This document shows positions 26,099-26,671 of a stretch of 36,858 nucleotides of DNA, piece after piece (within the stretch, counting starts at the first letter, position 1; each line of letters starts with the position of its first letter). The DNA comes from a virus, in the UHGV virus genome UHGV-1010924; one strand, written 5' to 3'. Below the pieces are notes generated by a model. That model did no database searches, was not told the origin of the DNA, and worked only from the letters and a program-made list of their open reading frames with translations. The translations under genes and the position numbers were made by a program.

Positions 26099-26133
26099 GT
26101 AAAAAAACCCACCAGCGGCGGGTTTGTTCTCTT
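26099..26133 (-). terminator. Rho-independent terminator downstream of the moron gene; weaker in the plus orientation
   Basis: On the minus strand the stem is AAACCCGCC/GGUGGGUUU with a run of seven T. On the plus strand the stem is aaaccc/gggttt followed by gttctcttt. Confidence 0.7.
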
Positions 26134-26144
26134 TCCGATGTCGA

Positions 26145-26645
26145 CTAAAGGGTTGCTTTCAGCACCTGGGCAGAGCCTTCCGACGCATCATGCGTGATGT
26201 TCCCGGTGGTGCCGCATACGGAAAACATAATTGCTCTCGAATTCTCCAGGGCCTTGATGCTTTGCAATGGGACAGTGGAGCTGAATGTTTCCCTGCTGCG
26301 CCCATCGTCAAAGCTGTTTGAGTACTGCAGGTCAATGGTTACAACGTTCTTCCCGTCCTCGGATACGGCCGTAATCCTGTCCTGGCCGCCACATTGTAGG
26401 TACTTCCAGTAATTGGACTCGGTTGATATCTCAACCCGGTAGGCATACGGGGTCTGCTGGCCTTTGGGATAGAGCGCACTGACGCGGAACTCAAAAGAAT
26501 CGGCTGTCGGCTTACTGGATGACCAGGTAACCGACTTGGCGCCCGAGTATGCATTCCCGCTTCGTGTCAGACCACTCTCACCTTCGCCTGCGATGCAGAG
26601 CGCCGGGTAAACTACCAGACCAAAAATAATGTGGCGCCAAAGCAT
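26145..26645 (-). CDS. Secreted/periplasmic protein of unknown function (166 aa), a low-GC moron between cI and PL
   Basis: The N-terminus WRHIIFGLVVYPALCIAG looks like a signal peptide. GC is about 50%. RBS AAGGGGG 8 nt upstream. It starts 26 nt after the cI stop and has its own terminator. Confidence 0.7.
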   Translation of the reverse strand: MLWRHIIFGLVVYPALCIAGEGESGLTRSGNAYSGAKSVTWSSSKPTADSFEFRVSALYPKGQQTPYAYRVEISTESNYWKYLQCGGQDRITAVSEDGKNVVTIDLQYSNSFDDGRSRETFSSTVPLQSIKALENSRAIMFSVCGTTGNITHDASEGSAQVLKATL

Positions 26646-26671
26646 GCCGCTAACCCCCTTTAGTTGTAACG

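Follow-up and report, generated by a model that had tools for sequence, protein, structure and literature searches.

A rare family of predicted periplasmic proteins encoded behind the cI repressor of Pseudomonas prophages

What is a gene for a putatively exported protein doing between a phage repressor and the early-left promoter? The question is raised by UHGV virus genome UHGV-1010924, a stretch of 36,858 nucleotides (nt) that we analysed whole and call the window. In it, a 166-amino-acid (aa) open reading frame on the minus strand (ORF166; 26145-26645, ATG at 26645-26643) directly follows the gene for a cI-like repressor. In phage lambda the same place belongs to rexA and rexB, which lie directly after cI, are expressed in lysogens from the repressor promoters, and end (at t_imm) before the left operator (OL) and the early-left promoter (PL). 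RexA is cytoplasmic and RexB resides in the inner membrane, and together they cause abortive infection. We find that ORF166 is a genuine gene, tied to cI-type repressors in Pseudomonas prophages, whose product has the features of an exported protein and a beta-sandwich fold. We propose that it is a passenger of the cI operon that acts in the periplasm as a superinfection-exclusion factor. Taken as a whole, this explanation is tentative, and we give it somewhat less than an even chance.

The locus has the layout of a repressor operon that ends in an extra gene (Table 1). The cI-like protein matches Pfam Peptidase_S24 (1.3e-20) and HTH_3 (8.4e-11) as well as the PHROG transcriptional-repressor family phrog_4 (9.6e-48), and its gene stops at a TAG codon (26674-26672, minus strand). 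Sequence inspection found neither a terminator nor room for a promoter in the spacer that follows, and a promoter scan found no sigma-70-like site on the minus strand from 26645 to 27328. Because the 26-nt gap leaves no space for a promoter of its own, cI transcripts would read into ORF166. ORF166 lies between cI and OL/PL, is co-oriented with cI, and is terminated ahead of PL, just where the Rex genes lie in lambda.

Downstream of ORF166 stands a canonical terminator hairpin of moderate stability, AAACCCGCC-GCU-GGUGGGUUU followed by seven U's. It folds at -12.5 kcal/mol (z -2.3), 3 of 200 shuffled sequences were equally stable, and a simple terminator scan did not pick it up. Beyond it, a PL-like promoter overlaps operator-like repeats whose core, TATACGAAT, is found again beside cI at 27340-27348 and, inverted, at 27378-27393. 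Three repeat families (D1, D2 and D14) are common to the PL region and the cI-cro intergenic region (27340-27421). By their sequence and placement, the repeats near PL and those beside cI look like OL and right (OR) operators, and PL with its operators (26041..26093) forms the edge of the slot, outside the gene.

Much of this layout had been described in an earlier reading made from the sequence alone (hereafter the sequence-only reading). Its account of a 166-aa frame at 26145-26645, 26 nt past the cI stop, with the ribosome-binding site AAGGGGG and three cysteines, matches the sequence in every particular. The rexAB-like slot that it placed between cI and the early-left promoter does hold a genuine gene, and the PL-like promoter that it put right after the terminator is present. 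The terminator that it called strong (26099-26133) is also there, although at -12.5 kcal/mol the adjective was generous.

The same arrangement recurs in other prophages. We recovered genomic context for eleven distinct relatives, and at eight of these loci the gene lies 21-43 nt past the stop codon of an S24 repressor, on the same strand: metagenome contigs L001, L004, L005, L012 and L014, the PF-69 chromosome (L008), GM67 (L009) and NPDC090202 (L011). These eight are independent Pseudomonas prophage contexts, lambdoid early regions with cro- or YdaS-like genes, replication genes of the O/P or DnaT/IstB type, and NinB/NinG. A 1.2-kb contig (L019) starts with 29 codons ending in ...RIIGQVIWRGGDL and a stop codon 31 nt ahead of the gene; the 29-aa fragment resembles the C-terminus of an S24 repressor, consistent with the slot behind cI. 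The hairpin that follows ORF166 is kept after close homologues in L001, L004 and L005, an unrelated equivalent follows a distant homologue in L009 (z -4.3), and hairpins also occur in L013, a locus described below. In L001, L004, L005 and L009, the gene is followed by a terminator and then by an operator- or promoter-like region.

The linkage holds although the repressors themselves are diverse. Those of the homologous loci range from 216 to 287 aa, with identities between groups of 17-63%, and even relatives only 22-28% identical sit directly downstream of very different S24 repressors. Pairwise comparison of the sequences indicates that ORF identity is decoupled from cI identity: 87% for the ORF against 62% for cI between the window and L005, 83% against 53% between L012 and L014, and 65% against 23% between L011 and L012. 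The window and L005 also show where exchange has occurred. Over window positions 26000-27119 they have the ORF, the terminator and the S24-encoding half of cI in common at 82% DNA identity, whereas L005 differs in the N-terminal DNA-binding domain of cI (a 245-aa protein) and in the operator sequences. This puts the exchange point within cI, in between the two domains. That linkage is kept across such divergent repressors argues that selection holds the gene on the repressor transcript whatever the immunity type.

Two copies stand apart from any repressor. The most divergent homologue (P0025; L013) belongs to a siphovirus, where a moron cluster (region 3404-6489) with the order HTH gene (helix-turn-helix), Bro-N, KilA-N, homologue separates the tail-assembly-chaperone genes from the tape-measure gene. 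The homologue is bracketed by hairpins with U-runs, and from its sequence context it does look like a terminator-flanked moron. The other copy (P0015; L021) is chromosomal and outside any prophage; around it (region 2304-5477) lie a divergently oriented gene for a TonB-dependent receptor, PagL and a hybrid sensor kinase. This neighbourhood, a single case, possibly hints at an ancestral partner or target.

Relatives of the protein are very few. When 5.8 billion proteins were searched by a word index, 8 of them came up, 54-99% identical; an exhaustive profile search over 1.84 billion cluster representatives gave only 10 clusters, and a second profile search gave 19 proteins. Altogether the family comprises about 24 sequences in two clades, one close (54-99% identical to the window protein) and one distant (20-28%). 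Searching 50,697 deposited phage genomes with three family members (tblastn) gave no match, and a pattern scan of 185,579 GTDB species genomes gave no confirmed relative. Three members come from named genomes, all of them Pseudomonas (GM67, NPDC090202 and the fluorescens-group strain PF-69). The window protein matches phrog_36853 (E 8.7e-17; residues 27-165 against profile positions 27-162 of 164), as do 24 of 24 members (best E 5e-46), and by these profile matches it is a member of that family, which PHROG annotates as unknown function. The sequence-only reading had recognised no family, and homology searches add only this one; no lysis or structural PHROG matched the window protein.

Despite its rarity, the family is well conserved. 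Six positions (W41, C85, D97, G98, C144 and G157) are invariant across it (alignment A3), and 66 columns are invariant among nine close-clade sequences (alignment A1). Ratios of nonsynonymous to synonymous substitution (dN/dS) between close members are 0.14-0.24 at dS of about 0.4-0.6, and the protein is therefore under purifying selection.

Family members carry the hallmarks of export. In a rule-based scan of 24 members, every full-length protein opened with one to three basic residues, then had a hydrophobic core 10-15 residues long (Kyte-Doolittle 1.8-3.3 for a 10-residue core) and a small-x-small site, and none had a membrane-helix-grade segment later in the chain (19-residue Kyte-Doolittle mean <=0.95 after residue 30). 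We accordingly rate the signal-peptide-like N-terminus claimed by the sequence-only reading as well founded, and predict from these features that the family consists of soluble periplasmic proteins exported by the general secretory (Sec) pathway. The window protein begins with MLWRHIIFGLVVYPALCIAG, and its predicted cleavage site, C-I-A↓G, aligns with a canonical A-x-A↓G in the distant clade. Its three cysteines are at positions 17, 85 and 144. A lipoprotein was considered and rejected, given that the window sequence Y-P-A-L-C17, with Leu at position -1, departs from the lipobox L-[AS]-[GA]-C; Cys17 occurs only in the close clade, and most distant members lack it. No cysteines other than Cys85 and Cys144 are invariant, and both fall in the mature part of an exported protein, which suggests a disulfide; we consider a Cys85-Cys144 bond probable.

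Structure prediction yielded a confident model. With the 24-sequence alignment, AlphaFold reached a mean predicted local distance difference test score (pLDDT) of 87.3 and a predicted template-modelling score (pTM) of 0.78, with residues 1-21 disordered (pLDDT <50) and then a sandwich of about ten strands and two helices. The nine close sequences alone gave an unusable model (pLDDT 50); adding the distant clade raised pLDDT to 87. The model has a grey-zone similarity to IalB (PDB 3dtd), at 6% identity. IalB, an envelope protein with a signal peptide, promotes the invasion of erythrocytes, by a mechanism that is unknown (PMC4568041). It differs from our family in being encoded by an alphaproteobacterial chromosomal gene; Pfam IalB matched none of the 24 members at E<=1, and 3dtd was absent from Foldseek's 50 best PDB matches. 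We treat the modelled resemblance as a lead on fold class, and as evidence of neither family membership nor mechanism. A second candidate came from lysozyme inhibitors. MliC/PliC proteins have conserved SxSGAxY and YxxxTKG motifs and an 8-stranded barrel; this identity was rejected, since the SGAK motif is not conserved across the family.

How might such a protein work? In the mechanism we propose, RNA polymerase starting at a cI maintenance or establishment promoter would read across the 26-nt spacer into ORF166, ribosomes would initiate at AAGGGGG-N8-ATG, and the transcript would stop at the seven-U hairpin just before OL/PL. Production of the protein would then accompany that of cI and so take place in lysogens. 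It would be exported by Sec and cleaved after Cys-Ile-Ala19, and the remaining chain of about 147 aa would fold in the periplasm as a soluble beta-sandwich, probably held by the Cys85-Cys144 disulfide. There it may bind a part of the host envelope on which phages depend, such as an outer-membrane receptor, or else the tail or ejection apparatus of an incoming phage. Such binding would block adsorption or the passage of DNA across the envelope, and so exclude superinfecting phages.

The closest analogue to this proposed mode of action is Glo of the Vibrio cholerae phage K139, a soluble periplasmic protein involved in phage exclusion (PMC3952083). Like the ORF166 product, Glo is small and is encoded downstream of cI on the same strand; it has a Sec signal peptide and comes from a lysogen-transcribed operon, annotated cI-orf2-glo-int, both of which we predict for ORF166 too. 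The two differ in that Glo has 137 aa, comes from a P2-like Vibrio myovirus, and is separated from cI by a gene for a 301-aa protein; homology between Glo and the family was rejected (hhalign probability 0.8%). With lambda rexAB, ORF166 shares position and transcriptional logic, but it encodes a single protein, predicted to be soluble and exported, instead of a two-gene system, and the window protein has no Pfam or PHROG match to RexA or RexB.

Other exclusion proteins offer further parallels. HK97 gp15 is a prophage-expressed moron that blocks DNA entry at the envelope (PMC3594210), and P0025 in L013 occupies the same slot, between tail chaperone and tape-measure genes and between terminator hairpins. 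However, gp15 is a small inner-membrane protein of the YebO family, unrelated in sequence to the predicted soluble beta-sandwich of about 147 aa described here, and the window copy does not lie in the tail region. Ltp of Streptococcus phage TP-J34, Cor of phi80, N15 and HK022, and Llp of T5 are likewise exported to the envelope and expressed from the prophage, and they block either a receptor or the injection of DNA; ltp sits in a lysogeny module and is transcribed in the prophage (PMC3952083), and Cor inactivates FhuA (PMC3594210). These proteins are lipid-anchored, whereas the window protein has no lipobox, and it shows no homology to them.

The slot behind cI is also used by other genes. 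In Pseudomonas phage psageK9, a 178-aa lipoprotein gene (psageK9_43c; L016:3188-3724) with lipobox LLTG↓C begins 21 nt after cI. Its product has weak DUF4410 similarity, and homology to our family was rejected (hhalign probability 0.6%). At the NPDC090202 locus (L011), a 16-codon remnant of a repressor C-terminus (DEHRVIGQVIWRGGDL and a stop; 8496-8546) comes right after the stop codon of the family member, nearly identical to the cI end that precedes the homologue in L019. Beyond it lie genes for two more exported proteins (8574-9182 and 9227-9763), of which one carries a Sec signal (AYA↓A) and the other a lipobox (LLTG↓C). The leftover repressor end suggests that recombination inside the conserved 3' end of cI swaps or stacks cargo. 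Judged by their signal sequences, non-homologous exported proteins thus occupy this slot in different Pseudomonas phages, although the cargo is not always directed to the envelope: in vB_Pae_CF183a, a LuxR-type HTH protein follows cI.

Is ORF166 then a moron, as the sequence-only reading had it? The terminator is its own, and related phages swap or lack the gene: psageK9 and vB_Pae_CF183a carry unrelated genes in its place, the remnant in L011 looks like an insertion scar, and L005 has the same ORF beside a different cI N-terminal domain and operators. A promoter of its own and a distinct composition are missing. The sequence-only reading gave ORF166 about 50% guanine plus cytosine (GC) in a 62% genome, figures that measurement corrects to 54.1% and 59.6%, with ORF166 at the 11th percentile of 501-nt windows. 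The cI gene (54.2%), the cro-like gene (56.9%) and the O-like gene (53.9%) are similarly low, which led us to reject a distinct low-GC island. ORF166 is not a compositional island because the whole immunity region is lower in GC (52-56%; other immunity and replication genes, 54-57%). In the window, ORF166 is a passenger of the cI operon, not a strict moron.

Table 1. Features of the cI-ORF166 locus in the window
Feature	Position	Strand	Description
cI-like repressor gene, 218 aa	26672..27328	minus	N-terminal HTH and C-terminal S24 autopeptidase; first gene of the presumed lysogenic operon
cI-ORF166 spacer, 26 nt	26646..26671	minus	Ribosome-binding site AAGGGGG (26660-26654), 8 nt ahead of the ATG
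Predicted Sec signal peptide, codons 1-19	26589..26645	minus	n-region MLWRH, h-region IIFGLVVYPALC, predicted cleavage CIA↓GEGE
Mature domain, residues 20-166, and stop codon	26145..26588	minus	Beta-sandwich with two C-terminal helices (AlphaFold)
Intrinsic terminator	~26101..26125	minus	9-bp stem (one G-U pair), 3-nt loop, seven U's
PL-like promoter, TTGACC-17-TATAGT	26069-26041	minus	Promoter scan, 10/12 matches; -35 hexamer 31 nt beyond the U-run
Operator-like repeats	26044-26063 and 26069-26088		20-25 nt, in a 25-nt register reaching 26093; overlapped by the PL-like promoter

Taken whole, the window represents the genome of a temperate phage, with genes for a capsid protease and a major head protein, for tail and tailspike-like proteins, for an integrase (17478-18773), and for replication proteins that are O-like and DnaB-like. 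Its DNA relatives are Pseudomonas phages, and it looks like a podovirus with a tailspike. On the other side of cI, the listed 94-aa cro-like HTH frame (27347-27631) most likely begins at an internal ATG at 27428, behind AGGA, to give 67 aa; this start agrees with a 67-aa HTH_3 protein in L001-L003. A candidate rightward promoter (PR), TTGCAT-17-TATGAT, lies at 27368-27396, below the threshold of the promoter scan. In the early-left region, three non-coding stretches (24802-24835, 25287-25333 and 25443-25500) are 93-100% identical across the otherwise diverged L001, L004, L008, L009, L011 and L012 and two deposited phages. One contains a hairpin at 25443-25475 (CCGAT.C.CTCTC-ATA-GAGAG.ATCGG) that matched no Rfam family. 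All three stretches may be antitermination RNAs of the nut or put type, small RNAs or hot spots of recombination. Neither an Rfam scan nor a tRNA scan of the window gave a match.

We now weigh superinfection exclusion against other explanations for ORF166. Exclusion is favoured because the gene occupies a rexAB-like slot, one family copy stands in the gp15 slot, neighbouring cargo is exported, and K139 Glo provides a precedent. Drawn from analogy and context, the assignment of this function is possible but falls short of an even chance. Several observations weigh against it. Functional homology is lacking, as Pfam, NCBIfam and PADLOC gave nothing meaningful for the window protein and 24 relatives, a PDB sequence-profile search gave 0 matches at E<=10, and Foldseek found no match below E 1e-3 in PDB or BFVD (TM about 0.3). 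The terminator is only moderately stable. The chromosomal copy in L021 means that the fold has a non-phage role somewhere, and virion types differ between the podovirus-like window and the siphovirus of L013, so a tail-specific target is not obvious. Some of these points would suit a lysogenic-conversion or fitness factor apart from phage defence, a periplasmic protein that alters envelope physiology. It might guard against tailocins, pyocins, other bacteriocins, type VI effectors or stress, or serve host or surface interaction as IalB does for Bartonella. The chromosomal copy beside a TonB-dependent receptor gene speaks for this, the lysogen-expressed geometry would suit any conversion gene, the IalB-like fold hints the same way, and Cor-type proteins protect against both phage and colicin (PMC3594210). 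Yet the IalB similarity amounts to 6% identity with no Pfam IalB match at E<=1, and the mechanism of IalB is itself unknown. Moreover, nearly all family members are carried by prophages and linked to cI, where immunity and exclusion functions are classically found, and environmental Pseudomonas hosts offer no obvious virulence context. We regard a conversion factor as doubtful, while giving it real weight.

The remaining explanations are improbable. Tight linkage to the repressor across very different repressors and immunity types could mean that the protein is a periplasmic part of the lysis-lysogeny circuitry, a sensor or modulator feeding envelope or population signals to maintenance or induction. 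However, a soluble protein in the periplasm that lacks a membrane-spanning partner has no obvious way to reach cytoplasmic cI, no partner gene is conserved at the recovered loci, the copies in L013 and L021 adjoin no repressor, and the protein sequence does not co-vary with cI; we see a slim chance of such a role. The chance is comparably slim that the gene serves the lytic cycle, as a periplasmic lysis or release accessory or a virion-associated protein, and came to lie beside cI by accident. Export would fit, as in spanins and some lysis accessories, and one relative (L013) lies within a tail-gene cluster. But ORF166 is upstream of PL with a terminator between, and thus outside the early-left operon; it is far from the lysis and structural modules of the window phage, its only PHROG match is phrog_36853 and not a lysis or structural family, and even the L013 copy is terminator-flanked like a moron. 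Finally, the missing annotation and the very few relatives in very large databases might suggest a chance frame or a decaying remnant without function. Conservation data effectively refute this, leaving it hardly any probability: dN/dS values indicate selection, six positions including the cysteine pair are invariant even in sequences only 20-28% identical to the window protein, the AlphaFold model is confident, and the ribosome-binding site, spacing and terminator are conserved.

Returning to superinfection exclusion, we can extend the proposal from one gene to a class. ORF166 and its relatives may represent a new class of soluble periplasmic exclusion proteins of Pseudomonas prophages, with an IalB-like beta-sandwich, expressed on the repressor transcript and neutralising an envelope step common to many phages. 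A possible target would be a TonB-dependent outer-membrane receptor, at which the L021 copy hints, or the periplasmic passage of DNA. On this proposal, recombination would make the 3' end of cI in Pseudomonas lambdoid phages a docking site at which exported anti-phage cargo is stacked. We offer the extension as speculation that is rather unlikely to hold in full.

Accessory genes expressed with the repressor and acting at the envelope are a well-known kind. This protein family, by comparison, is uncharacterised and very rare, so far seen only in Pseudomonas prophages and as the chromosomal copy in L021; no characterised Pseudomonas protein of the kind came up in literature searches. Few lysogen-expressed, envelope-acting prophage genes are understood in Pseudomonas, and such genes shape which phages infect a strain, which bears on phage therapy and on biocontrol of plant-associated pseudomonads. 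The family provides a small, confidently modelled candidate, predicted to be soluble, with an unusually strong positional signal behind cI. If it does block phage entry, it would be another soluble periplasmic exclusion protein beside K139 Glo, which has been described as an exception among exclusion proteins (PMC3952083), and it could point to a host target. More broadly, the unrelated, putatively exported proteins in the slot behind cI suggest a simple way to mine prophages for more envelope-acting factors.

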